A stretch of DNA of 32,000 nucleotides from Candidatus Brocadia sp. (GTDB lineage: Bacteria; Planctomycetota; Brocadiia; Brocadiales; Brocadiaceae). A program made the translations under genes and the position numbers. Positions 3,086 to 26,665 of this stretch are shown here, one piece after another (position 1 is the stretch's first letter; every line of letters starts with the position of its first letter). The DNA lies in the NCBI GenBank assembly GCA_021650915.1, contig CP091279.1, forward strand, positions 1,710,001-1,742,000, read 5' to 3'. Under the pieces are notes generated by a model that was not told the origin of the DNA, did not search any database, and worked only from the letters and a program-made list of their open reading frames with translations.

Positions 3086-3204
3086 AACTAGGCTCCTTTC
3101 CAAATGACTTCGAGCCGAACCATCGAAGCCGGTTGATAATATTCTTATTCACGTTCGGATGAATGTCTTTTTCTGCATGCAAAATAATTACTATTCTTTA
3201 TTTT

Positions 3205-4179
3205 TTATTCCTTTTTCCTCTCATTATCAGGTCGTATCTTTTTGATGTGTTTTTCAGATACATCGATTGACTGGTTTCCTTCGGCATGCCCTCCCCGTTC
3301 TTTATCCCTTTCAGTAATAGTTTTCACTTTCGATAAAAGATCAGAAGGGGCAACTGTCCCTTTGGTTTCATCATAGAGGTCAAACCATGGCAGGCCATGT
3401 TTTGTGTACGTTTTGGCATCTATAGGGCTTGGCGGCGGTTGAATCCCTGTTATTTCAAAAAACTGTGCACTATTCATACTATGCACTACCACCCGCCCGT
3501 AGTTATTTTGATCCCAGGCATCAATGCCATGCAGGTCGGGATATATCTTTTGTTTCATTACACCCCCGGCGCCAAGCCCCATGGGCTGAGCTGCCATCTG
3601 CCGTTCGGGATGGGCAAACCTGACAGGACCGGTCTCTGGCTCAGGTGGTGGTTTCTCAGGAAATCGACCTGGTTTTGGTTCGAAGACAAAGACCTGCAAC
3701 CCACCATATTTTTCTTCACCAGTAATGGCCGCTTCTATGGTATACCCAAGTCCCAGCGGCATTGCAACAAACTGACGGATCGTACCATGCCCGGTATTTA
3801 TGCCGTCCAGCCATAGCTGATCGGGACAGACAACATAGTCCTGCGGACCGGCATGAAGCCCGTCTGTATATGGTTTACCGGTAATTGCATTCACATCACC
3901 TGCATATATCTTCACCGCATTTGGTTTCCATGCAGCGGCATTGAAACCAAGCCACAGCGCCTCCCGCTGATACATAGGCATAAACACGCCACCTTGTTCC
4001 CGCCACAGGTGGGGGATACAATCCCGGTAATCATCAACCTTAAACAGCGGAAATGCACCGAGACCAGGCGGCAAAGGATAGACCCGCCCATCATCCGGGA
4101 TTCTTAAAGTACGATGGAAAGATATCGAAAAGCGCGGGCCGATCCGTATTCCATACTCATCGATAACAACATCAAGCAT
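3205..4179 (-). CDS. Conserved-looking hypothetical protein (324 aa), no recognised family
   Basis: Long ORF co-oriented in the operon, with GAGAGGA 6 nt upstream of the ATG. Globular-looking composition with a basic C-terminal tail (KKIRPDNERKKE). No signal peptide or TM segment seen. Confidence 0.7.
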   Translation of the reverse strand: MLDVVIDEYGIRIGPRFSISFHRTLRIPDDGRVYPLPPGLGAFPLFKVDDYRDCIPHLWREQGGVFMPMYQREALWLGFNAAAWKPNAVKIYAGDVNAITGKPYTDGLHAGPQDYVVCPDQLWLDGINTGHGTIRQFVAMPLGLGYTIEAAITGEEKYGGLQVFVFEPKPGRFPEKPPPEPETGPVRFAHPERQMAAQPMGLGAGGVMKQKIYPDLHGIDAWDQNNYGRVVVHSMNSAQFFEITGIQPPPSPIDAKTYTKHGLPWFDLYDETKGTVAPSDLLSKVKTITERDKERGGHAEGNQSIDVSEKHIKKIRPDNERKKE

Positions 4180-4296: not shown

Positions 4297-7200
4297 CTAT
4301 ATGCACTTCTCGACGAGACTAAGCAGAGCAAGAATGCGGCCGGTACTTTCCACCGGGAGCATCATTGGTGTCTCCGTTAGTGGCGCCAAAGACCCAAATA
4401 CTCCTTTGTCATCTTCCTTAGCAAACAGCTCTGTCGCCAACACGATTAGCCGTCCTGTATCGTTCAGTGGATATCGCCGACGCCGAACTGTGTGCCCGAC
4501 GTTACCTCCGATAGCCTCCGCGTATACCGTCTTCCCATTTTCAGCCTTGACAAGCGTGACGATGTCGCCATGGAGAAGGTCACCTTTTTTGACGTCCCTG
4601 AGACGCGCTGGTTTCTCGATGAAGTCCGTTCGATCCGTGATAATGATATCGCCAATCTTGATTGCACGTTCGATGGGTTCGAAGGCATGGTACGTTCCAT
4701 CAACGGCTTTGCGTCTGCGTTCACGCGCCTCGACGACATAGTCCGAATGTCTACGACTCGCCTTGAGCAGACCATCCAGCCCGCCATGCGCGCCTCTGCT
4801 GTCGATAGCCTCCAACTTGTGGCCGATGGCAGCTGTCCGAACGCATGACACTACGAACACGGCGCTCCAGGCTTCTATATCCGCGCGGGACTGATGTGCC
4901 AATTGCAGCGCTTCCTCGGCGAGGGTGTCTATATTCTGGGGGTCCGTGCTCCCAGCCTTCGTGAGAATCTTTTTTCGAACCTTTTGCTTATCGCTGTCCT
5001 CCCAGTTCTTCGCGGGGTTCTCCAGTGATTTGCGTAATCTCCTTGCCTGTTTGTGTTTATCCTTTGCCGCTTCGAGGACTCTCCTCGCCACTTCAAGGCT
5101 GTTTTTTTCAGCATCGCGCGCCTTCAGCGCGGTGTCATATGCCATTCTCGCTGCACTAAGGGCGGCACTTGCTGCGTCGAACGCCGTTTGTGCCCCAGAG
5201 TCAGACCGACCGCTGGCGGCCTTCATACGGTCATTGGCTGTCTCCATGTTTTTGGCGGCCAGTTCCACCGCTGTCTTGGTGACCTTGGCCTTCGTCTCGG
5301 CATCGTTGACCCTCACGATAGCTGAATCGACATCGTCAGACTTCTTGTAGACATCAGCGGTCCTGGCATCAACATCCGCTGCGGCTCTGCGGAAGGCCAA
5401 AACCGCCGCATTGAGGGTGGCGTTGCCAAGATTGCCGTACGTGACACTTGGATCAAGCGCTGCTTTTTGCACCGCCTCGAGCTTCCCGGGACGAATGGTT
5501 CCTGTATGTCCCGCTAACCAGTAACGGACAAGATCACCGAAACGCGAGTCATTGTCCTCTTTCTGAGCGGTGCTGCCTGCACCCATCCACCATATCTTTC
5601 GCTCGTCCAGGGCGGCAGTCGCCACGGCAGCCCTGAGGTCTGCCTCTTTGACAAATGCACCGCTGGGCCCATGAAAACCACACTTGGACGTAATCCCGGG
5701 CTGTTCCTGAAGTATCCCTGATTCGGACGGTTTTCCGCATTTTTCTCTGTGGTAAAGCCTTAGTTCCTCAATCTGCTCCTCGCTAACCCGACCATAGTTC
5801 CAGACGTGGAATTCTCCCCTGACATCCACATGGGCGAAGTTTGGCGCCAGCCCTATCGCAACCCTGCATCCGCAGGCGTCTATTGCCGCTTTCGCAATCT
5901 CAACGCCAGTCATCCCAGGTATCTTTATATCTGCTGCCCTGCCGCTCAGATGCTGACTTCTCTTTTTGGGTTCCTTCCCCAGTTTCTTGTAAAGATACAG
6001 GTTATACGTATAAGAGCGATAACCAGAATTGATAATGACTGATTTGCCAACATAATCCTGAATGGCCTGAAGGCAGTTTACCAGTTCGGGATCAATTCGC
6101 GCCTTGTCGAATTTTTTCGGGCCGCTCCTGGCAAGCTCATGGACGGTAAAATCCCTGGATAGCTTTTTTGTTCTATGGTTGCCACTCGTATCCAAAAGCG
6201 GGTTTCCCGATGTATTTGGGTCGTAGTACTCTTCTCCGGGACCGTCTTGTCCGGATACGATAGTCAGGGATTCCCCACTTGGGAAAGTTTTAGTATCTCC
6301 CACCGTATCTTCAACTGCTGTTCGCGCGGTGGGTGGGACAGAAGTTAAGCTTTCGCTTTCCTTGCTCGCCTTGGCCGCATTGCAAGGTGCATTGTTGATG
6401 CGATCAAGCCAATGCGCAATGGGTACCCAAAAATGGGGATCCGCTTTGCTTTTCTCCCTCTTCTTTCTCTCCGGTGCAGTCGAGGGGACAACACAAACAT
6501 TGTTGTGCTTAAATTTTTTCTTTTTGAGTTTTTCAGAGGTTGCTTTGGGCCGGTCATCGTAGTAATAGACGAAAAGCCAGGCATCTTGATGTGAATCCGC
6601 CCAGTTTGCCCACTCATTCGCCAACCATTTTTGTTTTCTCTCTTTTTCTGGTTCCGGATCGTCCAGTTTATTTGCATACAAGGAGTCAAAACACCAGCAC
6701 TGAACAATTTTGTCGGCGTAACCACCACCTTTCAATTTCGCCAGCTTCAGCATTGGGCTTCCTCCACCCGAATGGCATGCAAGGATAATGCTTCCGGCCA
6801 TAGGATCTTGCTTACGAGCCATATATGGGCCATAAGCTTTAAGCGCTTCCATAACCTGGCCCAGGTACTTATCTATCTCTCCGGGATTCGTCAAAATGCC
6901 GGTTTCGGATTTCGGGCCCAAAGTTGGCGCGACAAGGATACAGTTTTTCCCGCTATCGTTTAATCCTTCCCGGAATGCGAAAAAGGGGAACTTTTTGCCG
7001 TCCCAATATTCTTTAATCGACTTATCATTACCGGGAAAAGTTCCTTTGTATCCGTGCAAATAGAGAATCAGGTCGACGGTTGATTGGGGTTTGTAGTTCT
7101 GTGGAATAAAGATCCCCGTACAGGGCGGCGCAATCTCATTGTTTTTCTTATCGACGATTTTTAGATCGATCTTAACGTAGAGAGTTTGACCGGGTGGGGT

Positions 7201-9219
7201 TGTTTCACTGTCAAGGAGGAGAGGCGCAGAAGAGACATCCTCTGCGAATATTTCCGGTGCACGTCCCGCTACGGATAAGCATGGGTGGCCAGTTTGTGGC
7301 GCATAACCCCTATTCAGGATTTTTCCTGCCCCATCCATACGGCAATCAAAATGCATGATATCGCCGCTACGTCTGGGACCAAGGTCTATGGCGCCCCATG
7401 CGAGACAGGCTTGATCGCGCAAAGCCACTACAAGGTCACGGTTGAGATTGAGGAAACCATGGAGAGGGTTGCGACGTGACCCAAAATAAGTTTTAAGAAG
7501 CTTTAAATGCCCCTGAATCTGTTTCTGCCAACGCCCCGATGCAGCCTCTAAATCTCCCTTTTCTTTATCCGATACGAAGACATTGGCGGTGCCTTTATCC
7601 AGTCTTTCCTGCAATTTTTTCTTGATGGCTTCAATATCGGTAGCAAGCTGAAGATATGCGCGGAATTCTCTGTCTCGTTGAGCAAGTGCATCATAAATTT
7701 CACCTGTGGACCTCATCCTCCCGGTTAACGGGTCAGGCTCAGTTGCCAAACTATGTAAGTAGGTCGGTGTGAAATCGATCTCCGTTCCGGAAATAAGTAA
7801 CGTGACGCTCTTCATTATTTTAATAAAACTTTTGTTGCCAATCGGCCTATCTTTATCACCAGCCACATATGGATTACCGGTGTAGCTAATATCCAGCGCT
7901 AAACCAAACGTGTGATTGCCCTTCGATCCTTTTTTGTAGCGCATACCTTTGTGTCGTTCATCAATCCCCAATACCTTGCCCAACTCAACCGGGGTCAGAC
8001 CAGCGTACGCTGGCATGGAAAGGAGATGTCTTTCGGCAATGCGTAATTTACGTGCTAAAACCAGGTGAATGCCGGTGAGTTCACCTGCACTTTCGAATCT
8101 CTGACCCAGGAACGCCGGATTCACCATGTTCCTGAACCAGTTCCTTGCGGTAAATTCACCACCGGTGGCTATTGAAATCTTTTCACCTAAACCATTGAGC
8201 CAGTCCTGAGCTGTAAGATTCGGTTTATCCGCTTCATGCAATCCTTTCCGGTTCACGAGGCCGAGACTGTCGAGCGTCGATTCCCCGGCCTTGCCATCTA
8301 TCTGATTAGTTTCAACAAAACATTTCGCTTGAAACTGATGAACCGTCTCCACAAACACGCCATCAATGGGTGGCGTGCCCACTTCGATTTGGTTCTTCAG
8401 GTTGGCCTTGTTATGATTATCAATTTCATCTTTGACTTTACTCAAATCAACATAGCGTCCCAATTCCGTTCGGATGTCATTTGGATCCACGCCTGATTGA
8501 CCCGGATGCGTTTTCCGATTCCAGCGGACAGCATCCGTATTCTGTTTAGGATCAAGAATTGGGTGTATTATATCTGCCCGTTTTGAAGGATCAAAATCCG
8601 GCACTGCAACCGTGGTATCGGCAACATCCTCAAACAGATCGGGGATATCTTCCCGCCATCTCATGATTCCGGGACGAAAGCGAAGGATCATCTGATCGTG
8701 CGGCATGCGGCCGGTTTCATCGAGAATGAGGCGGGCAAAGGAGTCAGCCAGCGCATGAGGCCTCGCGCCACCTTCAACCACATGCACATAAGCGCCAAGG
8801 TGATGGCTTTCCGGAATCAACCCGGCAGACGACAACTGCTCATAGTCCCAGCTTTCGGGTGCGGCAATGATGGCAACGTGTCCAAAGCCTTCGCACATGG
8901 CTTTGCGCACGAGGAAGTCGCCGAGTTGAAAAACATCGTCGGGTCGCACTCCCGGTTCTGCCACCACCTCGAAAAACCGCTCGAAGTATTGACGCAGCAC
9001 CGGCGCACCACCAGGCGCAAAGGCATCAAAGATCGACGCCGGAGAAGGAAAACCTTCTGTGCCAAGAGAATTCTGTGTTTCTGCTCTCCCTGCTTTGGAT
9101 AGCACTTGGCTAAGCAGAGCGTTCGAGGAGACAGAAACCTTATCTACAGCAATTGCCTTCTCTGCTAACTCGATAAGTTCGCGACTAAGACCGCTCCCAG
9201 CTTCTCCTTTACTCCTCAT
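4297..9219 (-). CDS. Giant multidomain predicted cell-wall hydrolase: shared N-terminal module, PG-binding-like repeat, LAS/M15-like module, GxSxG-like hydrolase module, Peptidase_M15A (DUF882-like), Ala-rich coiled coil, DUF2272/CHAP-like domain
   Basis: Uninterrupted ~1640-1651 codon ORF. The ATG at 9219 follows AAGGAGG; the track's TTG at 9252 is also possible. Motifs, minus strand, approximate nt:
- shared module, 8650-9185;
- VHQFQAKC..DGKAGESTLDSLGL, 8255-8350;
- NHTFGLALDI (7891-7920) plus SGDIMHFD (7343-7366);
- LYLHGY...ILACHSGGG (around 6763-6790);
- SGYRS..SQHLSGRAADI (5927-5965) plus FAHVDVR (5821-5850);
- Ala/Lys/Glu-rich helical region, 4900-5450;
- WSAVFVVSCVR (4835-4875), LHGDIVTLV and AIGGNVGHTV (4480-4525). 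Confidence 0.85.
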   Translation of the reverse strand: MRSKGEAGSGLSRELIELAEKAIAVDKVSVSSNALLSQVLSKAGRAETQNSLGTEGFPSPASIFDAFAPGGAPVLRQYFERFFEVVAEPGVRPDDVFQLGDFLVRKAMCEGFGHVAIIAAPESWDYEQLSSAGLIPESHHLGAYVHVVEGGARPHALADSFARLILDETGRMPHDQMILRFRPGIMRWREDIPDLFEDVADTTVAVPDFDPSKRADIIHPILDPKQNTDAVRWNRKTHPGQSGVDPNDIRTELGRYVDLSKVKDEIDNHNKANLKNQIEVGTPPIDGVFVETVHQFQAKCFVETNQIDGKAGESTLDSLGLVNRKGLHEADKPNLTAQDWLNGLGEKISIATGGEFTARNWFRNMVNPAFLGQRFESAGELTGIHLVLARKLRIAERHLLSMPAYAGLTPVELGKVLGIDERHKGMRYKKGSKGNHTFGLALDISYTGNPYVAGDKDRPIGNKSFIKIMKSVTLLISGTEIDFTPTYLHSLATEPDPLTGRMRSTGEIYDALAQRDREFRAYLQLATDIEAIKKKLQERLDKGTANVFVSDKEKGDLEAASGRWQKQIQGHLKLLKTYFGSRRNPLHGFLNLNRDLVVALRDQACLAWGAIDLGPRRSGDIMHFDCRMDGAGKILNRGYAPQTGHPCLSVAGRAPEIFAEDVSSAPLLLDSETTPPGQTLYVKIDLKIVDKKNNEIAPPCTGIFIPQNYKPQSTVDLILYLHGYKGTFPGNDKSIKEYWDGKKFPFFAFREGLNDSGKNCILVAPTLGPKSETGILTNPGEIDKYLGQVMEALKAYGPYMARKQDPMAGSIILACHSGGGSPMLKLAKLKGGGYADKIVQCWCFDSLYANKLDDPEPEKERKQKWLANEWANWADSHQDAWLFVYYYDDRPKATSEKLKKKKFKHNNVCVVPSTAPERKKREKSKADPHFWVPIAHWLDRINNAPCNAAKASKESESLTSVPPTARTAVEDTVGDTKTFPSGESLTIVSGQDGPGEEYYDPNTSGNPLLDTSGNHRTKKLSRDFTVHELARSGPKKFDKARIDPELVNCLQAIQDYVGKSVIINSGYRSYTYNLYLYKKLGKEPKKRSQHLSGRAADIKIPGMTGVEIAKAAIDACGCRVAIGLAPNFAHVDVRGEFHVWNYGRVSEEQIEELRLYHREKCGKPSESGILQEQPGITSKCGFHGPSGAFVKEADLRAAVATAALDERKIWWMGAGSTAQKEDNDSRFGDLVRYWLAGHTGTIRPGKLEAVQKAALDPSVTYGNLGNATLNAAVLAFRRAAADVDARTADVYKKSDDVDSAIVRVNDAETKAKVTKTAVELAAKNMETANDRMKAASGRSDSGAQTAFDAASAALSAARMAYDTALKARDAEKNSLEVARRVLEAAKDKHKQARRLRKSLENPAKNWEDSDKQKVRKKILTKAGSTDPQNIDTLAEEALQLAHQSRADIEAWSAVFVVSCVRTAAIGHKLEAIDSRGAHGGLDGLLKASRRHSDYVVEARERRRKAVDGTYHAFEPIERAIKIGDIIITDRTDFIEKPARLRDVKKGDLLHGDIVTLVKAENGKTVYAEAIGGNVGHTVRRRRYPLNDTGRLIVLATELFAKEDDKGVFGSLAPLTETPMMLPVESTGRILALLSLVEKCI

Positions 9220-9284
9220 TTGTGTAAAACCTCCTTGTCCGTCTGATTTCAACCGTCAACCGGATCATTGTGCGCTCTCTATCG

Positions 9285-9677
9285 TCAATCAATCGATGGC
9301 GCACCAAGACGATATCGGAATCGGGTCTCAACCCTGGTCTCTGGGCGTCCAGGCCAACCAAGAAAAATCGGTACCCCTTCCCGCAGGTTCTGGAAATCGA
9401 ATGCAATGAAGCGGTACCTATTCTCACTAACCCACTTATAGTGCGGGATGGAGATCTCTCCCACATAGAGCACTGGAGAAAGGGCACCAACGGGGAATTC
9501 ATCGTCCGTATCAATCACAATCTCGACCGCCTCAGTAGCTTCTACTATCTTCAATCCGATGAGCCGATGTTGAGGTTCGCGGTAACGGATGTGCTTAGAG
9601 ACCACATTGAGAACCGCTGGTAGACGCCACGGGCTCTGGCTTCCAGGGCCGGTTCTTAGGTCATTATTTTTGCGCAT
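9285..9677 (-). CDS. Hypothetical 130-aa protein between the two giant genes
   Basis: GAAGGAGAG 6 nt upstream of the ATG at 9677. The start lies 20 nt after the upstream stop. Co-oriented in the operon. No family recognised, and no signal peptide or TM segment. Confidence 0.6.
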   Translation of the reverse strand: MRKNNDLRTGPGSQSPWRLPAVLNVVSKHIRYREPQHRLIGLKIVEATEAVEIVIDTDDEFPVGALSPVLYVGEISIPHYKWVSENRYRFIAFDFQNLREGVPIFLGWPGRPETRVETRFRYRLGAPSID

Positions 9678-9697
9678 ATTTGGCTCTCCTTCATGAC

Positions 9698-12600
9698 TTA
9701 TACGGTAACTATCTGTAACTGATCAAACGCAAAGTCGCGCGCATCGGGCCGGTTCAGCCTGATTATTGCTGCACGTATCCTTGTGAGATCGAGAGATGGG
9801 CGGGCGTGGGTAAAACAGTTAGCAGGAAAACGGACAGTCTTGAGCATTGTCTTGGTAAGGTTTACCCCAAATTTAGCCAGGTCCGCCGCTTCCCGGTCGA
9901 ACGGACGTGGCAGAGCCCCCGAAGGAACAAAAGACACAACGCCTGCCGCATCCTCAAGTCCTATTTGAAAACCAGTAGCGTCCACCGGTATAGCAATCCC
10001 ATTGTAAACCTCCGCAGCACGAATCCATACCTCTCGACCTGTAAGATTAAGCTCTCCTATAAAAGGCTCCCGGAATGTTCCCAAAGCGGTTGGGCTTTGG
10101 GCCACCATCCCATGGGTATTTCCAAAGTACGTCGTGTCAGGTACCACACCGGGCTGAAAAAAGACGACTTCTCTTGAAGTAAGGGTGCCTGCATCCACGG
10201 TCGTTTGACCCAGGGTATTTATCCGAATATTGCTGTTTTCGTAATTATCAACGGTAGTAGAGGTTGAGATTTCTGCAGAGATTTGGATGTCGGCGGTATT
10301 GACGCCTGGCGGACTCTCCCGCCCTGTCAAAATCTCAATGAATGGTGTACCAAGGAGCGTGTGACGGAAGAAAGCGGTTGCGTATACCGATAAGATGCGC
10401 CGGTGTTCATTCTCCGCCATTAAAGGCGGTTCCAGCTGCGCCGGAGGCGGTCCCCCAACCGATGGCCATGGTCGCTGCCACTCGCTATTCACCCATTCGG
10501 TGTTGAAGAAATTGTGGTTAGCCCTATGGAGGTATAATTGAACTTTGAACGGAGAAGGAGTGGTCTGGTCGTAAAATTTTGCCCCGTCGTTATCACGAAC
10601 ATCCCCATCAGCTGCTGGCAGGATTGTCATGAACGGTATACCCGCTGGCGCGCTCGTTATCGTGGCTGTATCCGTTGGCGCCAGGGATATCACCCCTCGG
10701 AAAGTGACATTCTGCAGGCCCTGCAACAAGCTTGCTACTACAGATGATGTTATTGATGGAACGAACAAAACAGACTCAGCTCCGCGGGAATGCCCCAGAA
10801 GCCCTACTCTTAAAAAGTCAATACGTCCCTCAAAAATTGAGCCGCTGCCGGGAGCGTTTAGCGCCTGGAAGTGGCGCATGGCCGCAATGATGAGCATAGC
10901 ACGCTGAGCAATATTGATATCGCTCATCGGAGTAGGACCATTGAGATCATGACAATCCACGGAAACAGAGATAATTCCCAGCCTGGCCAAGGCTTCTTGC
11001 AAGTAAACATAGCCCCGGTGGTTGCCGATCCGGGTCCAGCCTCCCGGGTTGTTTCCTCTTTCCCGTCTCCGTTCGGCAGGGTCATGGAAGCGGGCGTGAT
11101 TGCCATGAGCGATAAATACTATGGGCGATGCGCCTCCTGCCGCCAAGGCAAAAGGCACACCTGAACCAGCAACCGCAGCGGGGTAAAAGACGTTACCCCT
11201 AACCTCAAGGGTGTCACCGAAGGCTGAGATCGTACCGCTAGTGTAATTGCTGTTTCCGGGTTGGAAACCACCGCCCGCCGTCGGGTCAGTTGCGCCGGCG
11301 GTGGGGGCGCCGCAGGGTCTGTCGAGCAAAGCAAATACGACATCAAACCGGGTCATGGTCTCGTCTCCAACAATCCCGTCAACCTTCAGACTCGGCACAA
11401 CCCTTTTCTGGTCTTTCTGGAATGCCTGAACTGCCGCTTTGGTCTCACTTTCAAAATTGCCGTCTGCCCCGAATTTAGGGAGGGTATATCCGAGGTCGAG
11501 GAGGGCCTCCTGCACCTTCCTGACTGCAGTGCCAACGGCTCCGCCTTTGCTCCCCTTTTTTAATTCCTTTCTGTTATTAAGGACTTCGATGAGAATAGCG
11601 TCTCCCTGAAAACGAGAGGCTGTATAAGTCCGCAGGTTTTCGCTGTAGCCGATATCTTCACCCTCTATGATCGGGATACCCTGTGGACGACGTACAACGC
11701 GCAGAATCGCCGAGTCTGGGTACAGACGGCCCCTGGAGTCGAGTACGCGCCGTGCAAACGAATCAGCCAGGGTGTGAGGTCGGGATCCACCTTCGACTAC
11801 CTGCACGTAGAAGCCGGGACGATCACTTTCGCCATATAATCCTCTCCCCATTAACTGATTCTGTCCCCATAGCTCAGGTGTGGCCACTATAGCCAGGTGA
11901 GCAAGCTGCCCTTCGCCAAGGGCTCGGCGGACAATCATGTCCCCCCTCTGGAGGGGTTCGCCAAGCCGCGAGCCAGGGATGGCCACTACCTCGAAAAATT
12001 GTTCGTAATGACGCCGTAACGCCGGACTTCCACCGCGTGCAAAGGAATCAAAGATCGATGCCGGCGAAGGAAAACTTCCCGCACCAAGAGGGCTTACGGT
12101 CTCCGCAATGCCGGCTTTGGATAGCGTCTCATGCAGTAGCGCGCTCCCGGAAAGAATACCATTTCCGGCAGAAATGGCCTCATCCGCCAGATCAACAAGT
12201 TCAACGCCAAAACTCTTCTCGACTTCCGGAAACACTTCATCGTCCTGTTCCCCGTCATCTCCGGACTCACAGATTTCAGAGACCTCCGCTTCTTCCTTAT
12301 TATCTTCTTCTCCCTCCAATAACTCATTGTCCGACTCCTCAGGCCATGAATCTTCAGCGGTTGCAATCTCTCCCTGCCAGGCTTCCGTGGGGTCAGCCTC
12401 AATCCCCTTCGGCGAGAAAAACTTGATTGTGGCACTTCCCACAAGACTTGGCTCTCCGCCTGTTTTATGAATGGCGGAGAAGTCAACCTTTTCCTCCACA
12501 CCCTCACTCCAAACCTTAAATGCCTTAGACCACGCCTGGGCAAATGCACTTGTATTGCACCCTACAAAGCGGTGTATCCTCTTTGGATTCCCTTTTTGGA

Positions 12601-14188
12601 ATCGTTTCCGAAGTTTTTTATTGCTATCAATCGAGGAGACAGGAATAATCTCGTATGACTCGGGCGCAACAGCTTCGCTTGCAGAACTATGGCCTAGTGA
12701 GAGCCACAGGTCGTCACGAGCATGGCCCCAGTACCACACGCGTGAGACAGAGCTTTTGCTGAACGTCTTTAGCTTCTTCCACAGATCATCAGCCGTATTC
12801 AACCAGCTTAGATTCCAACCTCTCTCCTTTGCCCGTCCCTCAACCATATCAACATAAGAAGTAAAACCTTTGCCTTTCACCTCCTTAATTGACTTACGAC
12901 CATTCTTTTGATCATCATCCCATCTGCTTTCATAGGCTGGTTTATAGACAAACCACCAGACCTCTTCATCCGCCCGAGCAAATTTCTTACGCTTTTTTTC
13001 AGTATCGGTCATCAATAAAGGGGGGGTGACGTAGTTTGCCCATGATTTATCATGCTCCACATCCCGGTCGTCAAACAAGCCGGGACCGCCAGAAATCAGG
13101 ATAAAATTGCGCTTTCCCGAGTCTTCCTCAGACTCCTCATCCTCTTCAACGTATTCTTCATATTCCTCGTCTTCCCCCTTTTCCTCTTCAGTGAAGAACT
13201 CATCTTCGAAGTCTTCTTCTCTTGAACATTCGTCATTTCTATTCATAACCACATCCTTTGCAATTTCTCTTTCGCGGTTTTCTTCCTCATGAGATTCCTG
13301 TACGATATTACTCACCATGCAAGATTTGTCCATCTCTTTGGTACCTGAAGGGTCATCGCCTGACGCGTTTGATTCTAAAAATCGAGATTGGGTCTTGTTT
13401 ATCTGTGCCGCACACGATAACGGTTCTTCTATAGTTAACCGATTTGTGGAAGATTGGAATTCTGCTTTTTCTTCCCCGGCTGGTATCATCTTACTGTCTT
13501 GGTGTAATCCTTCTTGTGTGAATATGCGAGCAGCCTCCACGGCTTTTTTAATATCAAGACAGCCATTTCCAACGCGGGCAGCGATTTCTGACGGTGCCGT
13601 AATAGTTCTGCAAGCACTTAAAAGTATCTTTCGAGTCTCTTGGATCCAGAGCGGTCGTTGGGCAGTTTCAAACATGCATGCTATAGTCCCCGCCACATGG
13701 GGAGACGCCATGCTCGTTCCCGATTTTCTCGTGAGCATAGGCACCCCAATATTCTGATCCCGGGAGCTGGAACGGGCTGCTAAGATACGAACACCGGGTG
13801 CAACGAGATCGGGTTTCTGACGGCCATCTGCCGTTGGTCCGGAACTACTAAAAATCGCCACCTCCAAATCAGGAGAATGAGGATTGTACGCACCTACCGC
13901 AATGGTGCGAAACCCGTTACAAATAGTGCCTATTGTGGAAGCAGGCACAGCATCATGAGGATCAAACCGGGATTGACATTGCGGACAAGAATTGTCGCGC
14001 TCCACCCAGCAGTGGAATCGTCCATCAACGATATCTTCTCCAATCAAGGTGACCAGCCATGATCCAGATGGAGCCCCCGGATAAAGAAAAATATCGACAT
14101 GGTTGTCACCCTTACCTGGATCGCGCGCCCGGTGATAGATATGACCGAATTCCTGACCGCCAACCTGGATAGCGCGATGCTCACCCAA
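9698..14188 (-). CDS. C-terminal ~1500 aa of a frameshift-split giant protein: S8 Ser-motif half, acidic linkers, unknown domain, shared module, PG_binding_1-like domain, alpha/beta hydrolase (GHSRG), beta-rich C-terminal domain
   Basis: The Met at 14188 is internal, because this frame stays open upstream to 14356 (..TWWTNKADFTPNELECWYSGNDSF..). Motifs, approximate nt:
- SGTSMASPHVAG, 13690-13725;
- poly-acidic linkers, 13105-13260 and 12230-12365;
- shared module, 11690-12215;
- AVRKVQEALLDLGY..FGADGNFESETKAAVQAFQ..VDGIVGDETM, 11345-11565;
- IAHGNH..LLGHSRGAE (10778-10800)..SLAPTD..ANHNFFN. Confidence 0.8.
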   Translation of the reverse strand: MGEHRAIQVGGQEFGHIYHRARDPGKGDNHVDIFLYPGAPSGSWLVTLIGEDIVDGRFHCWVERDNSCPQCQSRFDPHDAVPASTIGTICNGFRTIAVGAYNPHSPDLEVAIFSSSGPTADGRQKPDLVAPGVRILAARSSSRDQNIGVPMLTRKSGTSMASPHVAGTIACMFETAQRPLWIQETRKILLSACRTITAPSEIAARVGNGCLDIKKAVEAARIFTQEGLHQDSKMIPAGEEKAEFQSSTNRLTIEEPLSCAAQINKTQSRFLESNASGDDPSGTKEMDKSCMVSNIVQESHEEENREREIAKDVVMNRNDECSREEDFEDEFFTEEEKGEDEEYEEYVEEDEESEEDSGKRNFILISGGPGLFDDRDVEHDKSWANYVTPPLLMTDTEKKRKKFARADEEVWWFVYKPAYESRWDDDQKNGRKSIKEVKGKGFTSYVDMVEGRAKERGWNLSWLNTADDLWKKLKTFSKSSVSRVWYWGHARDDLWLSLGHSSASEAVAPESYEIIPVSSIDSNKKLRKRFQKGNPKRIHRFVGCNTSAFAQAWSKAFKVWSEGVEEKVDFSAIHKTGGEPSLVGSATIKFFSPKGIEADPTEAWQGEIATAEDSWPEESDNELLEGEEDNKEEAEVSEICESGDDGEQDDEVFPEVEKSFGVELVDLADEAISAGNGILSGSALLHETLSKAGIAETVSPLGAGSFPSPASIFDSFARGGSPALRRHYEQFFEVVAIPGSRLGEPLQRGDMIVRRALGEGQLAHLAIVATPELWGQNQLMGRGLYGESDRPGFYVQVVEGGSRPHTLADSFARRVLDSRGRLYPDSAILRVVRRPQGIPIIEGEDIGYSENLRTYTASRFQGDAILIEVLNNRKELKKGSKGGAVGTAVRKVQEALLDLGYTLPKFGADGNFESETKAAVQAFQKDQKRVVPSLKVDGIVGDETMTRFDVVFALLDRPCGAPTAGATDPTAGGGFQPGNSNYTSGTISAFGDTLEVRGNVFYPAAVAGSGVPFALAAGGASPIVFIAHGNHARFHDPAERRRERGNNPGGWTRIGNHRGYVYLQEALARLGIISVSVDCHDLNGPTPMSDINIAQRAMLIIAAMRHFQALNAPGSGSIFEGRIDFLRVGLLGHSRGAESVLFVPSITSSVVASLLQGLQNVTFRGVISLAPTDTATITSAPAGIPFMTILPAADGDVRDNDGAKFYDQTTPSPFKVQLYLHRANHNFFNTEWVNSEWQRPWPSVGGPPPAQLEPPLMAENEHRRILSVYATAFFRHTLLGTPFIEILTGRESPPGVNTADIQISAEISTSTTVDNYENSNIRINTLGQTTVDAGTLTSREVVFFQPGVVPDTTYFGNTHGMVAQSPTALGTFREPFIGELNLTGREVWIRAAEVYNGIAIPVDATGFQIGLEDAAGVVSFVPSGALPRPFDREAADLAKFGVNLTKTMLKTVRFPANCFTHARPSLDLTRIRAAIIRLNRPDARDFAFDQLQIVTV

Positions 14189-14232
14189 AAGAACATGAAA
14201 AACCGCATTGCGTTCGGGCGGACGGACTTCAA

Positions 14233-15249
14233 CTATGAATGAATCATTCCCTGAGTACCAGCACTCCAGTTCGTTGGGGGTAAAATCCGCCTTGTTTGTC
14301 CACCAGGTGAGGGTATGTTTTTGCCCGGGGATAATTGGCCAGCGGCATGCACCCGTTCATCAAAATAGTTTCCCGTGCTCATACAGATAGCCCTACCAGG
14401 GGCCTGGAGTAACAGCGCATCCATGCCCTGCTCCACAAGGGTCAAGCCCGTGTGAGGCCCGCCACACCGGCCAAGGCTGAGGTTAACCACCCACGGCCTC
14501 TTCCCGGCAACCCTGGCAATAAAATCCAGGGCCTCTAAAATCCTCACACTATCTCCCAGATTTGCCAGGCCACCTGTGCCCTGAGCTGCAAGATTGACAA
14601 AGACAATATCCGCCTCCGGCGCAATACCCAGGGGACTGCCCTCTACTCGTCCGTTTCCTGCAGCAATATCGCAAACATGGGTGCCGTGGGTGCCATAGCC
14701 CAAAGGGTCACTATCGTCTGGATGATAGCCCAAGGTTTCGTATGGTTGCGGGCTTTGAAGGGATCTGTTTATCTCATCCGGTGAATAGACAACGCCGTAG
14801 CCATAAGGGACGGGCTTTTCTATAGCTGTTGTATTGCCCTGATCCCAGAGGGCCAGTAACCGGGTAGAGCCATCATCACTTCGAAAATTGGGATGTACGA
14901 AGTCAAAGCCCCAGTCGACGATACCAATGACCACCCCCTGGCCAGTGGATTCCACCGAACCGGGACGCCGGGAGTCACTGGGGAAATTCCTGGTATCTAA
15001 TACTTCGCTTTCACCAACAAACTCCGGTTCGGGCGCCACATACCGTGAACCCTTTACGCTTACCGTTGCCGGATGTTCCCATACCCCATGAATTTGATCA
15101 CGCCTCAACCGGCAGGTGGTAATATCCCCAAATTGTGTTATGATCCGCACATGGGGAGGAATGATATCACCCCGCCGTAGCTTTAGAATCACCTCAACTT
15201 CTTCGGCTCCTTCTCCCTCTTCAATGACCTCTTCCAGACGGGGATCCAC
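14233..15249 (-). CDS. N-terminal half of the subtilisin-like S8 serine protease (Asp/His/Asn part), frame-broken from the ORF below
   Basis: GTG start with AAGGAG 7 nt upstream. Catalytic-type motifs IGIVDWGFD (14881-14940), HGTHVCDIAAGNG (14660-14700) and NLSLG. The last ~30 codons (SPGKNIPSPGGQTRRILPPTNWSAGTQGMIHS) look out of frame. No signal peptide (MDPRLEEVIEEGEGAEE). Confidence 0.8.
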   Translation of the reverse strand: MDPRLEEVIEEGEGAEEVEVILKLRRGDIIPPHVRIITQFGDITTCRLRRDQIHGVWEHPATVSVKGSRYVAPEPEFVGESEVLDTRNFPSDSRRPGSVESTGQGVVIGIVDWGFDFVHPNFRSDDGSTRLLALWDQGNTTAIEKPVPYGYGVVYSPDEINRSLQSPQPYETLGYHPDDSDPLGYGTHGTHVCDIAAGNGRVEGSPLGIAPEADIVFVNLAAQGTGGLANLGDSVRILEALDFIARVAGKRPWVVNLSLGRCGGPHTGLTLVEQGMDALLLQAPGRAICMSTGNYFDERVHAAGQLSPGKNIPSPGGQTRRILPPTNWSAGTQGMIHS

Positions 15250-15304: not shown

Positions 15305-15793
15305 CTAAGATTCTTGTGTAACTTTTTTTTCAAATGTAAACTCCCTCTTAAACCCATCATTAGGCGTTATCACAAGGTCAACCGAACCAGAACCCTTACT
15401 AGTGTTTAGATTCTTGTCGTCTGTAATCTCATATCCATTTTTTGCATTTTCATTTTTAAACTTCAAAGTTGTCGTTTCCGCACCGGAAATGGTGAAATTT
15501 AAAACTCCACCGTTTTCTCGAGATTCAACTTTAAGTGGACGATTGAGGCTTGCTAACTCATTTTTCGCTTTTATCAGTTCACCCTGAATGTTATTCAGAC
15601 TGCCTTGCAGACTAGTGTTTTTGGTCTCCAAATCAATCCTTGTATCAATTTGGGGTTTTAGCAACAACGGGCCTACCATATTATTTGGAGGAAACATGCC
15701 TGAGGCGAGACCAACCGTTAATGCTTCATTTCTCGGCAAGTCTTTCGCCAACAAAAACCCTATCAAAAAATTATTATTGAAAATTCCATTCAC
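15305..15793 (-). CDS. Hypothetical 162-aa protein (operon gene D): hydrophobic N-terminus, short coiled coil, beta-rich C-terminus
   Basis: GTG start with AAGGAGG 5 nt upstream. N-terminus MNGIFNNNFLIGFLLAKDL. The central stretch LQGSLNNIQGELIKAKNELASL looks helical. No family recognised. Confidence 0.65.
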   Translation of the reverse strand: MNGIFNNNFLIGFLLAKDLPRNEALTVGLASGMFPPNNMVGPLLLKPQIDTRIDLETKNTSLQGSLNNIQGELIKAKNELASLNRPLKVESRENGGVLNFTISGAETTTLKFKNENAKNGYEITDDKNLNTSKGSGSVDLVITPNDGFKREFTFEKKVTQES

Positions 15794-15828: not shown

Positions 15829-16452
15829 CTACTTCAATGCCATGGCCAGGACTAAAGGCATCATATTAGAAGAATCACCTGTGCCGCCCCCCAGACCGCC
15901 TGGCATCATTGCCATCAGCGCAAAGATAAGGAAGAAGCTATCATCCTTCTTATACGTTGTAGTCTGTATAGGCATAGGCGTAGGAGTAGCACCCGTTGCA
16001 GGGACTGGAGTGATACTTTCTATCTGCGGCGGCTTGGTAAGAAGTAATGGCAGGATTGACATCATTGACATCTGCTGCGTTTGTTGCTGCCCTTTCTTCA
16101 GGGTTGCATCAATCGCGTTAACCTTTTTATCCAGCATGCTGGTATTTTTGTCTAATGTTTCGTCCACCTTTTTGATAGCCGTCCTTAATTCCTTCGCCAG
16201 ATTATCCACCGACTCCCTCGTCGCGACGGGTTTTTCAAATTTGAACTGTGCCCGTCCAGCCGGAGTATTGATACTACCTCCCTTTAAACCCCCTACTCTG
16301 CGTGAAGGTAGCCTGGTTGCCCGTCCCCTCCTGTACCTTGGATATCGAGCTTCACCGAATGTTTCCTCCCATTTTTCCGTATCATCTTCAGTTTCCAAAA
16401 GTGCCTCGTCATCTTCAAAAACTTCCAAATCATCTTCTTCTAAATACGGCAT
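15829..16452 (-). CDS. Hypothetical 207-aa protein (operon gene C): poly-acidic N-terminus, Arg-rich RYPRYRRGR motif, coiled coil, P/T linker, hydrophobic Gly-rich C-terminus
   Basis: The ATG lies 2 nt after the stop of the upstream gene, and AAGGAGG sits inside that gene's last codons, which suggests translational coupling. The antisense 210-aa ORF (15842-16474) is Ser-rich low complexity and has no ribosome site. Confidence 0.7.
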   Translation of the reverse strand: MPYLEEDDLEVFEDDEALLETEDDTEKWEETFGEARYPRYRRGRATRLPSRRVGGLKGGSINTPAGRAQFKFEKPVATRESVDNLAKELRTAIKKVDETLDKNTSMLDKKVNAIDATLKKGQQQTQQMSMMSILPLLLTKPPQIESITPVPATGATPTPMPIQTTTYKKDDSFFLIFALMAMMPGGLGGGTGDSSNMMPLVLAMALK

Positions 16453-16454
16453 AA

Positions 16455-16973
16455 TTACACCTCCTTTTGGTTAATGTTCGTATGCTGACTTTTAGCATTG
16501 ACCTTCGTCTCCGCGCCTGAATCCGCCGGAACGCCTTGCTCCTTCCCCCTAAATAAGCGGAGTTTGCGAACCGCCGGAAGCACATATTCAACGAAGGCGC
16601 TTGTGTTCGGGACATACGCACCCGGAACACCTTTTCCATTACATATTTCACACCCCACGTCTTCCCCCCAACAGTACGGACACGCGCCGAGGGCAGAAGC
16701 AAGGGCATCATTTTTTTCCATTAAAACCATATTCTCATGCTTTAGCTGTTTGTATCTGCCAATGATCCTCTTAAGTTTTATTTTCTCTTCTTCGGCAGGT
16801 ATGCGCTTATCCTGCGGAGGGTTTTGATGTTTCATGAATTCCGCAAGCATTTGAAGCCGGGGGTCAGAAATACCCATTTGATTCAGCATGTCTACGATAT
16901 TCATAGAATTTGCCGGTGAATCATTATTTGTACGAGAAGGGCTATGCTCGTTCATTAATCTTTCTCCTGTCAT
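16455..16973 (-). CDS. Hypothetical 172-aa protein (operon gene B): coiled coil followed by a CxxC-x6-CxxCxGxG zinc-knuckle
   Basis: Motif ALGACPYCWGEDVGCEICNGKGVPG is encoded at about 16626-16690. An alternative start is the ATG at 16955 (AGGAGA 7 nt upstream). Co-oriented and tightly coupled to gene C. Confidence 0.7.
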   Translation of the reverse strand: MTGERLMNEHSPSRTNNDSPANSMNIVDMLNQMGISDPRLQMLAEFMKHQNPPQDKRIPAEEEKIKLKRIIGRYKQLKHENMVLMEKNDALASALGACPYCWGEDVGCEICNGKGVPGAYVPNTSAFVEYVLPAVRKLRLFRGKEQGVPADSGAETKVNAKSQHTNINQKEV

Positions 16974-23392: not shown

Positions 23393-24787
23393 TTATTTCC
23401 CGATACAAAATTCAGAAAATATTTTCGTTAAAATATCTTCCGTTGTAACGGACCCCAGTACCTCACCCATGGCATCTGCTGCTGCACGCACGTCTAACGC
23501 AATAAATTCGTGGCTTTCATCACGCTGCGCTGATTCCACGGCACATTGAACCGAATGGAGGGATCGCTGCAGGGCATCCTTTTGACGGATATTCATGAGA
23601 CACGGAATGGTCTCTATCCTGCCGCCCAGAACGGTATCTATCAGCAGGTATTTTAATTCTTCAAGCCCCTCTCCGGTTTGTGCAGAGGTATAGACAACAG
23701 GATACTTTTCAAGCTCCGGAGGAAGTGACTGGCGGAGAGATGTTAGATCGGATTTGTTGACGATAACAATCGTAATGGCGGCCAAATCGTCCACCTTTAG
23801 TTCCAGAAATTGTTCAGCCAAACTGAGACTACCATCAAAGACAAGCAACACTACCTGCGCCCGTTTCAGGACGGATTGCACCTTTTCCGTTAACCCTGCA
23901 ATCCCGGCTTCTTTGATAACTTCCACTCCTGCAGTATCCGTCAGTTTGAAACAAATTCCTCCAATCTCCACCGTATCGGCAACGATATCCCGGGTTGTTC
24001 CCGGCACGTCGCTGACAATCGACCTTCTCTTCCCCAGAAGGGCATTAATCAGGCTCGATTTCCCCACATTGGGTTTGCCATAAAAAACGGCACCAATCCC
24101 CTCCGTCGAAACCTTACCGGTTTCTGGCTGATGGAAAAGACGGGAGATGGCTATTTTTAGCTCTGCTAGTTGCCGGATAATTTCCGTCGCCGGTATCAGT
24201 TCGATATCCTGGTCTGAAAAGTCAATGGCGGCCTCTATCTGCGCCAAAAGAGAAACTATCTTGTCCTGTATCTGCCTGATCTGCCGTGATACGTTTCCTG
24301 TCAATTGCTCAACCGCTGCGGCGAGCTCAAGGTCTGTCTGTGCCCGGATGATGCGCATGGTGGCTTCGGCCTGCGCAAGGTCGATCCGCCCGTGTAAAAA
24401 GGCGCGTTTGGTAAATTCTCCCGGCTGCGAAAGCCGGATGCTCCTGTGTGCCTGAATCTTTTCCGAGAGAAGGGTGTCTAAAAGTATTTCCAGAAGCGGC
24501 GGAGAGCCAGTGGTGTGAATTTCTACGACATCCTCCTTTGTGTAAGAAAAGGGCTTTTTCATAAGGTACAAAAACACGGGAATACTGACCTGTTCCTTTG
24601 AAGAGCAAATGAATCCCTTTAGCGAGCTATAGGACGGAATATCTTTCCACTCAATGTTCGTGGCTGGAATAAAAATACTTCTGACGCACGGAATGGCTTC
24701 GGGTCCGCTGATCCTGATGATTGCATGAAATGATCTCCCCGCCGGTGTAGACACCGCAACAATCGTATCCTGCATTCCGGGGTACAT
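23393..24787 (-). CDS. mnmE: tRNA modification GTPase MnmE (TrmE)
   Basis: G-domain motifs GKPNVGKSSLINALLG, DTAG and NKSDL. N-terminal DTIVAVSTPAG and the C-terminal FCIGK signature are present. The real start may be the ATG at 24775 (MQDTIVAV). Confidence 0.93.
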   Translation of the reverse strand: MYPGMQDTIVAVSTPAGRSFHAIIRISGPEAIPCVRSIFIPATNIEWKDIPSYSSLKGFICSSKEQVSIPVFLYLMKKPFSYTKEDVVEIHTTGSPPLLEILLDTLLSEKIQAHRSIRLSQPGEFTKRAFLHGRIDLAQAEATMRIIRAQTDLELAAAVEQLTGNVSRQIRQIQDKIVSLLAQIEAAIDFSDQDIELIPATEIIRQLAELKIAISRLFHQPETGKVSTEGIGAVFYGKPNVGKSSLINALLGKRRSIVSDVPGTTRDIVADTVEIGGICFKLTDTAGVEVIKEAGIAGLTEKVQSVLKRAQVVLLVFDGSLSLAEQFLELKVDDLAAITIVIVNKSDLTSLRQSLPPELEKYPVVYTSAQTGEGLEELKYLLIDTVLGGRIETIPCLMNIRQKDALQRSLHSVQCAVESAQRDESHEFIALDVRAAADAMGEVLGSVTTEDILTKIFSEFCIGK

Positions 24788-26490: not shown

Positions 26491-26665
26491 GAATCTTTTT
26501 TGGTTCCTCCGGCAATTTTGCCTCATCAACTAACATAACGGGAATATCGTCTCTTATGGGATATCGCCGTCCGCATGTTCGACACACAATGCTGTCGCCT
26601 TCCAAACAGACGTCCGTCTTACAGAGGGGACAGGCAAGGATATCCAGCAATTCTTTTGTAATCAT
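26483..26665 (-). CDS. Trm112/YcaR-like zinc-ribbon protein (UPF0434-type)
   Basis: MITKELLDILACPLCKTDV..LEGDSIVCRTCGRRYPIRDDIPVMLVDEA matches the Trm112p-like pattern (CPxCK...CxxC..YPI.DGIPVML). GGGAG 7 nt upstream of the ATG at 26665. Confidence 0.8.
   Translation of the reverse strand: MITKELLDILACPLCKTDVCLEGDSIVCRTCGRRYPIRDDIPVMLVDEAKLPEEPKKIHG

Follow-up and report, generated by a model that had tools for sequence, protein, structure and literature searches.

In a 32,000-nucleotide stretch of the genome of Candidatus Brocadia sp. (GenBank assembly GCA_021650915.1, contig CP091279.1, positions 1,710,001 to 1,742,000 of the forward strand), hereafter called the window, two giant genes on the minus strand, E and G, each contain a copy of one and the same domain, which we refer to as the module. 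We found that this domain recurs in hundreds of proteins, in which it is either preceded by an S8 protease related to the Csp proteases or stands at the head of an enzyme of variable type, and that genes for both kinds of protein lie side by side in a conserved cluster together with a response regulator and four small proteins, A to D. With moderate confidence, we interpret the module as a non-catalytic coupling domain or pro-domain, which would bring lytic effectors devoid of signal peptides to the Csp-type protease for processing.

The duplicated module and its family

A BLASTP comparison of G with E yielded a single significant local alignment (E = 9e-49), in which residues 25-204 of G are paired with residues 663-839 of E, as numbered in the open reading frames (ORFs) of the window (G, 4297..9252; E, 9698..14188; both on the minus strand). 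Identical residues occupy 96 of the 181 aligned positions (53%), positives amount to 68%, and all remaining segments of the two proteins matched at E ≥ 0.3 only. The similarity is therefore far above background and bears out a preliminary description of the window, according to which a module of about 175 amino acids (aa) is duplicated between the two giant proteins, at about nucleotides 8650-9185 and 11690-12215. When a hidden Markov model (HMM) of the family was run on the six-frame translation of the window, exactly two copies were detected, in agreement with those positions:

8665..9180, minus strand: module copy 1, at the N-terminus of G (family HMM E = 5e-67; G residues ~14-185 counted from the ATG at 9219)
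11684..12202, minus strand: module copy 2, internal in E (family HMM E = 2e-70; residues 1017 to ~1190 of the intact 1850-aa E), preceded by an acidic low-complexity linker

At the DNA level, positions 9025-9068 and 12047-12090 are identical at 37 of 44 sites, the very number that had been counted by hand before, and the best shifted register gives 16 of 44. Over the 176 aligned codons of the module pair, nucleotide identity is 61%, and identical amino acids are encoded by identical codons in 43 of 96 cases, compared to the 29.9 expected from codon usage (p = 0.003). These values indicate that the likeness of the DNA is mostly due to conservation of the protein, with a modest excess. Recent gene conversion between the two window copies is ruled out by the DNA identity of 61%, and from the sequences compared the pair is to be regarded as an old duplication and not as a recent conversion tract.

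Neither copy of the module gave any Pfam match at E ≤ 10, no match was obtained in NCBIfam, PHROGs or PADLOC, and none was obtained among PDB sequences, whether single copies or a profile of 37 sequences were used as query. Thus, a clean match to a known enzymatic or wall-binding family, which according to the preliminary description would speak against a trafficking or adaptor domain, was found in none of Pfam, NCBIfam and PDB. Also, literature searches revealed no description of the module or of the gene cluster; their coverage is incomplete, and an earlier description is possible. A word-index homology search with the module retrieved nothing, and with the 37-sequence profile only three short proteins, so that an exhaustive HMMER search was needed to delimit the family. 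Among 1.84 billion cluster representatives of a metagenome cluster collection, HMMER detected the module in 516 at E ≤ 1e-3, in 346 at E ≤ 1e-10 and in 60 at E ≤ 1e-30.

An AlphaFold2 model of the module, calculated from a 37-member alignment, is a single domain with a mean predicted local distance difference test (pLDDT) score of 91.6 and a predicted template modelling score (pTM) of 0.87. In the predicted topology, four N-terminal helices are followed by six strands. We conclude that, as far as family-wide conservation and this model can tell, the module is a real, independently folding domain of about 170 aa. In 100 aligned members, residues P76, G87, D88, R92, H101, E124, G129, Y131, V134, E136, G138, H142, R150, G157 and R167 are conserved at 86-99%. 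The absence of a conserved cysteine, which had been noted for the window pair, holds for both copies and extends to all 100 sequences, and at the start of the helix 47-54, where the nucleophile would reside in a papain-like fold, serine (53%), threonine (12%) or alanine (9%) are found.

The preliminary description had also remarked on a superficial resemblance to the histidine region of NlpC/P60 enzymes. The GD...H pattern in question is formed by G87 (92%), D88 (98%) and H101 (91%), which map to the strands 89-93 and 100-112, and H101 may be the equivalent of the catalytic histidine of NlpC/P60. A Foldseek search with the module model gave nothing at E ≤ 1e-3 in PDB or BFVD. The weak top matches were papain-like wall amidases, namely PlyPy (5udm; E = 0.059, template modelling (TM) score 0.41), Tse1/Tae1, Gsp amidase, LytE and phage CHAP/NlpC proteins. 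The resemblance thus stands as a weak echo of the fold (E = 0.06, TM 0.41), whereas it fails with respect to the nucleophile and to sequence profiles. We keep it as a lead because the weak top matches are repeatedly papain-like amidases.

Csp-type protease, variable cargo and a conserved gene cluster

In the window, the two halves of an S8 subtilase were recognized by Pfam in separate ORFs and different frames, the C-terminal one where the E ORF begins and the N-terminal one in the ORF 14233..15249 upstream of it. A public contig (L025), which aligns with the window over 15,117 bp at 99.993% identity and with a single gap in blastn, has five cytosines where the window has four (14327-14330) and encodes one E protein of 1850 aa. 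The orthologue of E in Candidatus Brocadia sp. MAG_8 (P0002, 1784 aa) is intact. We therefore rejected the 1496-aa protein of the window ORF as a model of E in favour of the single 1850-aa gene seen in L025 (9698..15249). The split of E into 14233..15249 and 9698..14188 is probably a sequencing or assembly error and possibly a strain-specific or phase-variable frameshift. For G, the start is most likely the ATG at 9219, giving a protein of 1640 aa with the module 13 residues from the start; this 1640-aa protein is called identically on at least 23 public contigs. The corrected genes and their parts are as follows:

9698..15249, minus strand: gene E, 1850 aa when intact, two ORFs in the window (Pfam, intact orthologue P0002, L025)
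14327..14330, minus strand: homopolymer run, C4 in the window and C5 in L025, apparent frameshift in E (blastn and frame analysis)
13481..15249, minus strand: S8 peptidase region of E, prodomain and subtilase with a central beta-rich insert (Pfam, NCBIfam, model of a homologue)
about 11351-11533, minus strand: PG_binding_1 of E (Pfam)
4297..9219, minus strand: gene G, 1640 aa (Pfam; exact protein on at least 23 public contigs)
about 5824-6150, minus strand: Peptidase_M15_3 of G (Pfam)
about 4441-4782, minus strand: DUF2272 of G (Pfam)

From the N- to the C-terminus, E consists of a Csp-type S8 peptidase with its prodomain, an acidic linker, an uncharacterised domain, a second acidic linker, the module, PG_binding_1, an alpha/beta-hydrolase-like region and a beta-rich C-terminus. 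In G, the module is followed by a VanY/M15_4-like region, which scores below the Pfam cut-off, by an alpha/beta-hydrolase-like region, which was read from the sequence only, and by Peptidase_M15_3 and DUF2272.

The S8 domain is predicted to be an active protease of the Csp type. Among S8 homologues, the catalytic triad is present in 73 of 74 (Asp), 75 of 75 (His) and 80 of 80 (Ser) sequences; in E, the catalytic Ser is that of SGTSMASPH. AlphaFold2 modelled the S8 region of the homologue P0129 (residues 1-570) with confidence and placed a beta-rich insert between the catalytic His and Ser, at about residues 291-406. When this S8 model was submitted to Foldseek, CspB of Clostridium perfringens (4i0w) came first (E = 7e-33, target-normalised TM score 0.84, root-mean-square deviation 3.1), followed by CspA and CspC at 1e-31 to 2e-28, while the nearest other subtilase was found at 9e-16. 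Retention of the prodomain and a central jellyroll are the defining features of Csp proteases, and CspB activates the cortex hydrolase pro-SleC by removal of its N-terminal propeptide (PMC3567191). The best NCBIfam models for the S8 domain are CspBA and CspC as well, at 44-64 bits compared to cut-offs of 675-1250, and by its sequence it should be seen as a distant relative of the Csp proteins and not as an equivalog.

Architectures were counted for the best 150 of the 516 cluster representatives. In 92 of these 150 the module is internal, and 83 of the 92 begin with the same S8 domain of about 590 aa as E. In the other 58, none of which has S8, the module lies within 60 residues of the start. 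The window holds one protein of each class, E with the S8::module arrangement and G with an N-terminal module. The module of the S8 proteins is preceded by a long linker of acidic, low-complexity sequence, for which the P0129 model shows disorder, and in the stand-alone proteins the first helix (consensus xLVELADxxI) starts 2-27 residues after the initiating methionine. In one protein of 2634 aa (P0001), S8, module, DUF7800/PhoD, a second module and a beta-lactamase-like region follow each other.

A Pfam scan of 39 homologues matched 31 families, most of them in the cargo. Most frequent were PG_binding_1 (10), Amidase_2 (5), OmpA (4) and VanY, PLDc_2 and PETase-like (3 each); GH25, M15_3, beta-lactamase, PhoD, amine oxidase, Amidase_3, muramidase, GH46 and others occurred once or twice each. 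When the window was compared with Brocadia MAG_8, A, B, C, D, E and F130, a small protein encoded between E and G, turned out to be 82-91% identical, whereas the gene in the place of G resembles G over its first ~193 residues only (61%) and then continues with a GH25 lysozyme in place of M15/DUF2272. In this comparison, the single case of cargo displacement between close relatives, the whole module-plus-cargo gene seems to behave as a cassette. By a hydropathy heuristic (not SignalP), a signal-peptide-like N-terminus is absent from G and E, from 48 of 49 stand-alone homologues and from 82 of 83 S8 homologues, which fits a cytoplasmic synthesis followed by regulated processing or release.

These results allow us to refine the view that a shared module heads variable enzymatic cargo and might be the handle that couples both giants to A-D. 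The HMM search brought to light both variable C-terminal cargo and recurrent neighbours, and the first part is valid for hundreds of proteins and for the replaced cargo in MAG_8. However, the module is not strictly a head, since it forms the C-terminal end of the S8 proteins P0051, P0057 and P0090 as well as of P0007, which is not an S8 protein. The neighbourhood association with A-D proved to be very strong and to extend across phyla, but the strongest partner of the module is the S8 peptidase, fused upstream of it in the 83 internal-module proteins mentioned above, and not A-D. The peptidase had been missed because the frameshift splits its gene in the window.

Scans of genome and metagenome collections and exact look-ups provided 28 loci, in which the gene order was determined by tblastn and HMM searches. 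Wherever upstream DNA suffices (L002-L009, L012, L013, L019-L022 and L028), the genes follow in the order A, B, C, D and S8::module, with one to three more module genes behind them on that strand. C and D were detected by sequence in about four loci and were otherwise inferred from position and features. Hosts are Candidatus Brocadia (Planctomycetota), Pyrinomonadaceae and Thermoanaerobaculia (Acidobacteriota), Nitrospira sp. SG-bin1, Rhodospirillales bacterium URHD0017 and an uncultured deltaproteobacterium. The sole well-flanked locus that has the module without the core is L001 (20.9 kb), and four other loci lacking S8 are contigs of 5.2 kb or less. In L029, the regulator, A-D-like genes, an S8-like stretch and the module are retained; this locus looks degenerate because the S8-like stretch overlaps a gene called on the opposite strand. 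In the window, the regulator, the small core proteins and two further small proteins next to G are encoded as follows:

21414..22772, minus strand: sigma-54-dependent response regulator with REC, AAA+ and HTH domains (Pfam, NCBIfam, tblastn)
17017..17877, minus strand: protein A, 286 aa, first core gene (alignment, synteny)
16455..16973, minus strand: protein B, predicted coiled coil and invariant four-Cys zinc-ribbon motif (ALGxCxxC...CxxCxG)
15829..16452, minus strand: protein C, acidic N-terminus and Gly-rich hydrophobic C-terminal tail
15305..15793, minus strand: protein D, conserved hydrophobic/amphipathic N-terminus (MNGxFNxNF..LLAKDL)
9285..9677, minus strand: F130, small beta-rich protein between E and G (tblastn; no family match)
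3205..4179, minus strand: u324, 324-aa protein directly downstream of G (no match in Pfam, NCBIfam, PHROGs or PADLOC)

For A-D, no family or solved structure was matched in Pfam, NCBIfam, PHROGs, PADLOC or PDB, and profile searches with A and B against PDB gave nothing significant. Protein A has a counterpart with 100% identity in Candidatus Brocadia sp. UTAMX2, so that the window stems from that anammox organism or from an almost identical strain. At least 167 homologues of A exist, all of them annotated as hypothetical and without Pfam domains. It is characterized by a glycine-zipper-like segment (GGPxGxxxGxxxG) and by the motif YLxDxxGxxxxDPAxPE. Weak matches of A to a phage tape-measure family (PHROG 167, E = 1.5e-4) and to the crAss001 cargo protein gp45 (PDB 7qog, E = 0.006) were treated as compositional because they are confined to the Gly-rich segment. 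C and D contain short hydrophobic segments, and D is apparently fused to C in some lineages. Directly upstream of A, a sigma-54 activator is encoded in L003, L007, L008 and L019, and a LuxR-type REC regulator takes the same place in L021, L028 and L029. A search of the window for the sigma-54 promoter pattern TGGCAC-N5-TTGC (up to 2 mismatches) gave 33 occurrences compared to 28.4 expected, with no convincing site upstream of A.

F130 is 91% identical in the MAG_8 locus (L002) and is present in two copies in a deltaproteobacterial locus (L004), each directly after a cargo of the E type (alpha/beta-hydrolase); it is a candidate for a cognate immunity or accessory protein. The gene u324 stands beside G on all contigs with the exact G and was not detected in the MAG_8 locus with its different cargo, and its product is possibly a cargo-specific partner or immunity protein.

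Proposed role of the module, alternatives and known systems

In the mechanism that we propose, the module copy on the protease and the copies on its clients would bring both together, either by homotypic contact or by way of one common partner. The S8 protease would then process the clients, in a way comparable to the action of CspB on pro-SleC or to the removal of BetaH in the S8 polymorphic toxin system (S8-PTS) of Gram-positive bacteria, and the lytic enzymes might become active upon cleavage. A role of A-D in release or export is plausible because these proteins are conserved, possess glycine-zipper-like or hydrophobic segments and accompany wall-active cargo devoid of signals. The module appears to be tied functionally to the protease, since it is fused to it in 83 proteins and heads client enzymes encoded next door.

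A related logic has been described for effector-associated domains (EADs), where one domain copy resides on a core protein and a second one on the variable effector protein of an adjacent gene, and where copies that are closest to lineage-specific paralogues led to the inference of homotypic coupling (PMC7159879). In our family, S8-borne and effector-borne modules are not split into clades of their own: the nearest neighbour of a module belonged to the same class in 56 of 100 cases, compared to 52.9 ± 5.6 by chance. For 8 effector modules, the S8-borne copy of the same locus ranked first (5) or second (3) among 17 S8 copies. It is this combination of protease fusion, mixed clades and same-locus ranking, the pattern used for EADs, that leads us to the reading as a coupling domain or pro-domain. 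By analogy, module-module binding and cleavage of the clients by the protease may be expected.

Several observations weigh against such a role. The near-invariant residues include many polar ones (D88, R92, H101, E124, Y131, E136, H142, R150 and R167), and polar near-invariance is commoner in active or ligand-binding sites than in pure adaptors, so that a degenerate amidase or a new enzyme stay alive as explanations. The S8 protein of L028 has no detectable module, and ORFs that consist of the module only occur (P0099, 177 aa; P0028, 228 aa). An AlphaFold2 model of S8, linker and module of P0129 (pTM 0.65, with a disordered linker) contains no docking information. At neither boundary of the module was a conserved cleavage motif found; R-x-[R/K] at the C-terminal edge is conserved to about 64% only, and R167 lies inside the last strand. 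Also, repeated duplication or gene conversion could account for the similarity of copies within a locus, with no need for a constraint from binding.

The main alternative, which we consider unlikely, is that the module is a secretion or packaging signal of a dedicated export or release apparatus built from A-D, with S8 as a co-exported maturation enzyme that bears the same tag; this corresponds to the earlier suggestion of a handle to A-D. The linkage of the module to A-D is as tight as that to S8, the family of A has no other known context, and a tag common to protease and effectors fits co-export, as does the lack of Sec-type N-termini in module proteins though much of the cargo acts on peptidoglycan or the envelope. 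The glycine-zipper-like segment of A and the hydrophobic segments of C and D mean that these three could be membrane proteins. XVIPCD in type IV secretion (X-T4SS), MIX/FIX in type VI secretion (T6SS) and LXG in type VII secretion (T7SSb) are non-catalytic marker domains found on unrelated antibacterial enzymes, among them peptidoglycan hydrolases and lipases, and effectors of T4SS (XVIPCD) and T6SS (MIX) are recognised by such domains. However, the case for export draws on gene order alone, the physical fusion is to S8 and not to A-D, and A-D resemble no secretion, holin or pore component in the five libraries searched. A crude hydropathy scan indicated a clear transmembrane segment in only some A-D orthologues, and neither an ATPase nor an outer-membrane component is conserved in the cluster. 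A speculative extension of the export idea, to which we likewise assign a low probability, would make the whole cluster a hitherto unrecognised system by which diderm bacteria (Planctomycetota, Nitrospirota, Acidobacteriota and Proteobacteria) release or secrete proteins. In it, the module would serve in cargo recognition and A-D as membrane apparatus, while the Csp-type protease would mature giant signal-less lytic enzymes that kill neighbours or cause regulated autolysis.

The fold echo raises the question of whether the module might be a degenerate amidase of the NlpC/P60/CHAP type that has lost its nucleophile, binds stem peptides of peptidoglycan and targets lytic enzymes to the wall. The papain-like wall amidases among its best, weak matches, the GD...H arrangement, the many conserved polar residues, which suggest a ligand pocket, and a cargo rich in peptidoglycan hydrolases would agree with this idea. 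It is nevertheless rather improbable, as no fold match at E ≤ 1e-3 and no sequence or profile match was obtained, cargo unrelated to peptidoglycan exists (PLD, PhoD, amine oxidase, PETase-like), and 10 of the 39 proteins scanned already have PG_binding_1 and 4 have OmpA. Moreover, a generic wall binder would not be expected to be confined to one cluster, to be fused to a cytoplasmic protease and to stand almost always at the extreme N-terminus. Improbable as well, in our judgement, is a new type of enzyme, for instance a metal- or His/Glu-dependent hydrolase, that would provide a constant catalytic head next to variable accessory enzymes. Near-invariant H101, H142, D88, E124, E136, Y131, R150 and R167 and the existence of module-only ORFs speak for it, but there is no conserved Cys or Ser nucleophile, no catalytic family was matched, and both the attachment to the protease through a flexible linker and the relationships among paralogues are more in keeping with an adaptor. 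Finally, the similarity of E and G is almost certainly not a trivial by-product of a recent segmental duplication or gene conversion of neighbouring genes without meaning at the family level. The slight surplus of identical codons and two copies with 87% identity in another locus (L015) might be cited in its favour, but the window copies differ too much at the DNA level, and the 516 divergent cluster representatives come from several phyla and repeat the same architectures. The size of the HMMER family, the S8 and N-terminal architectures and the cross-phylum synteny already refute this explanation.

Returning to the module as a coupling domain or pro-domain, a close parallel with the same overall logic is S8-PTS, which comprises an S8 peptidase, a BetaH-toxin and an immunity protein, and in which, in Staphylococcus aureus, the peptidase cleaves off the shared N-terminal domain and toxicity is enhanced (PMC9424270, PMC13556192). 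As in that system, an S8 gene adjoins effectors with one conserved N-terminal domain and variable C-terminal cargo. BetaH is described as a domain of ~120 aa with a seven-stranded sheet around a C-terminal helix and without any universally conserved residue, and this description sets it apart from the module with its ~170 aa, four helices, six strands and near-invariant residues. Toxin and peptidase of S8-PTS both have signal peptides, and neither protein does here according to the hydropathy heuristic. The peptidase is a separate protein there, whereas here it is of the Csp type and fused to the shared domain. The cargo of the Brocadia-type loci consists of envelope-degrading enzymes and not of nucleases, four extra conserved small proteins and a response regulator are present, and the hosts are diderms.

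With the Csp/pro-SleC pair, the system has in common a protease closest to CspB, CspA and CspC, with prodomain, subtilase and central beta-rich insert. Pro-SleC is the zymogen of a peptidoglycan hydrolase and has a propeptide at its N-terminus as well as PG_binding_1, and E and many homologues combine module, PG_binding_1 and hydrolase. In contrast to that pair, the hosts here are non-sporulating diderms, the NCBIfam scores for Csp lie far below cut-off, and Csp proteins are not fused to the propeptide of their substrate. EADs resemble the module in that the same domain is found on a core protein, here S8, and on the adjacent effector, and in that copies are closest to lineage-specific paralogues. 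However, the cores of EADs are vWA-MoxR, GTPase or STAND proteins and some EADs are helical and Death-like, whereas here a protease and four small proteins form the core, the domain has a larger alpha+beta fold, and no sequence relationship is known. Like the marker domains of secretion systems, a conserved non-catalytic domain would mark the clients of one machine, but here the marker is also fused to a protease; components of T4SS, T6SS or T7SS were found neither in the window nor in related loci, and no other known secretion gene was seen in the vicinity. With amidases of the NlpC/P60-CHAP type (Tse1/Tae1, PlyPy, LytE), the module has in common GD...H on consecutive strands after an N-terminal helical part, whereas it lacks the catalytic Cys or another conserved nucleophile, has no sequence match in Pfam or PDB and reaches TM scores of at most 0.41. 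As in polymorphic toxin systems in general (PMC3482391), a conserved N-terminal region is combined with variable C-terminal enzymes, and the cargo is displaced at the same locus.

Systems in which polymorphic effectors share a non-catalytic domain and are processed by an S8 peptidase are thus known already. The domain itself, the Csp-type fusion, the four small proteins, the control by a response regulator, the giant envelope-degrading cargo and the occurrence in diderms were unmatched in the libraries and literature searched. If our interpretation is correct, the cluster represents an uncatalogued effector system, for which one HMM recovers hundreds of giant lytic enzymes and loci. The Csp-type subtilases, which in the literature that we found have so far been characterised in the germination of clostridial spores, would then extend to non-sporulating Gram-negative phyla, with a comparable relationship between protease and wall hydrolase. 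Also, it would raise the question of how signal-less enzymes of 1,600-1,850 residues reach the cell wall of a diderm, and it would suggest that anammox Brocadia, Nitrospira and soil Acidobacteriota, which are of relevance to communities of wastewater treatment and the nitrogen cycle, kill other bacteria or lyse in a controlled manner. Rhodospirillales bacterium URHD0017, one of the carriers, appears to be a cultured isolate, and these predictions should be testable there.

Neighbouring genes and further observations

Between the regulator of the window and the operon lie a split transposase, a PIN gene and a DUF3467 gene, and two further genes were noted downstream of the cluster:

18812-20043, minus strand: ISH6-family transposase, split in two ORFs for the C- and N-terminal halves (E = 6e-36 and 4e-14)
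20630-21070, plus strand: PIN-domain protein beside the insertion sequence element (E = 3e-11), with no obvious antitoxin among the listed ORFs
18445-18729, minus strand: DUF3467 protein upstream of A
2075-3103, minus strand: astacin-like metallopeptidase with a PPC domain, downstream of the cluster, not detected in the related loci searched
37-1716, minus strand: 5'-nucleotidase/metallophosphatase with a hydrophobic N-terminus, downstream of the cluster, not detected in the related loci searched

By position, the DUF3467 gene is kept in MAG_8 (L002, 909..1193), where the copy has no Pfam match; it is probably not part of the core system because it was not detected in other phyla. On the other side of the regulator, the cluster adjoins mnmE (23393..24787) and yidC (24805..26529), two genes that are often found near the chromosomal replication origin.

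Within the giant proteins themselves, inspection by eye showed alpha/beta-hydrolase-like motifs in two large regions without a Pfam match, one with CHSGGG in G and one with GHSRG towards the C-terminus of E, and a third uncharacterised domain lies between the two acidic linkers of E. These regions, which include E ORF residues ~360-600 and G residues ~680-950, are possibly uncharacterised cargo families.

In L015 (2429-9992), three module genes are arranged in tandem, and the 87% identity of one pair suggests a recent duplication or conversion within the array. Three modules are packed into 5.2 kb of L018, and an ORF of L024 that contains the module only is overlapped by the ORF behind it, which has a cpYpsA domain. 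The locus of Rhodospirillales bacterium URHD0017 (L028, GCA_900110395.1, FODP01000039.1, 9795-17238) encodes a protein of 1625 aa composed of S8, DUF7800 and PhoD, and the next gene, with a product of 835 aa, combines the module with trypsin-like and beta-lactamase-like regions; a YcaO/TfuA/radical-SAM cluster is located just upstream.

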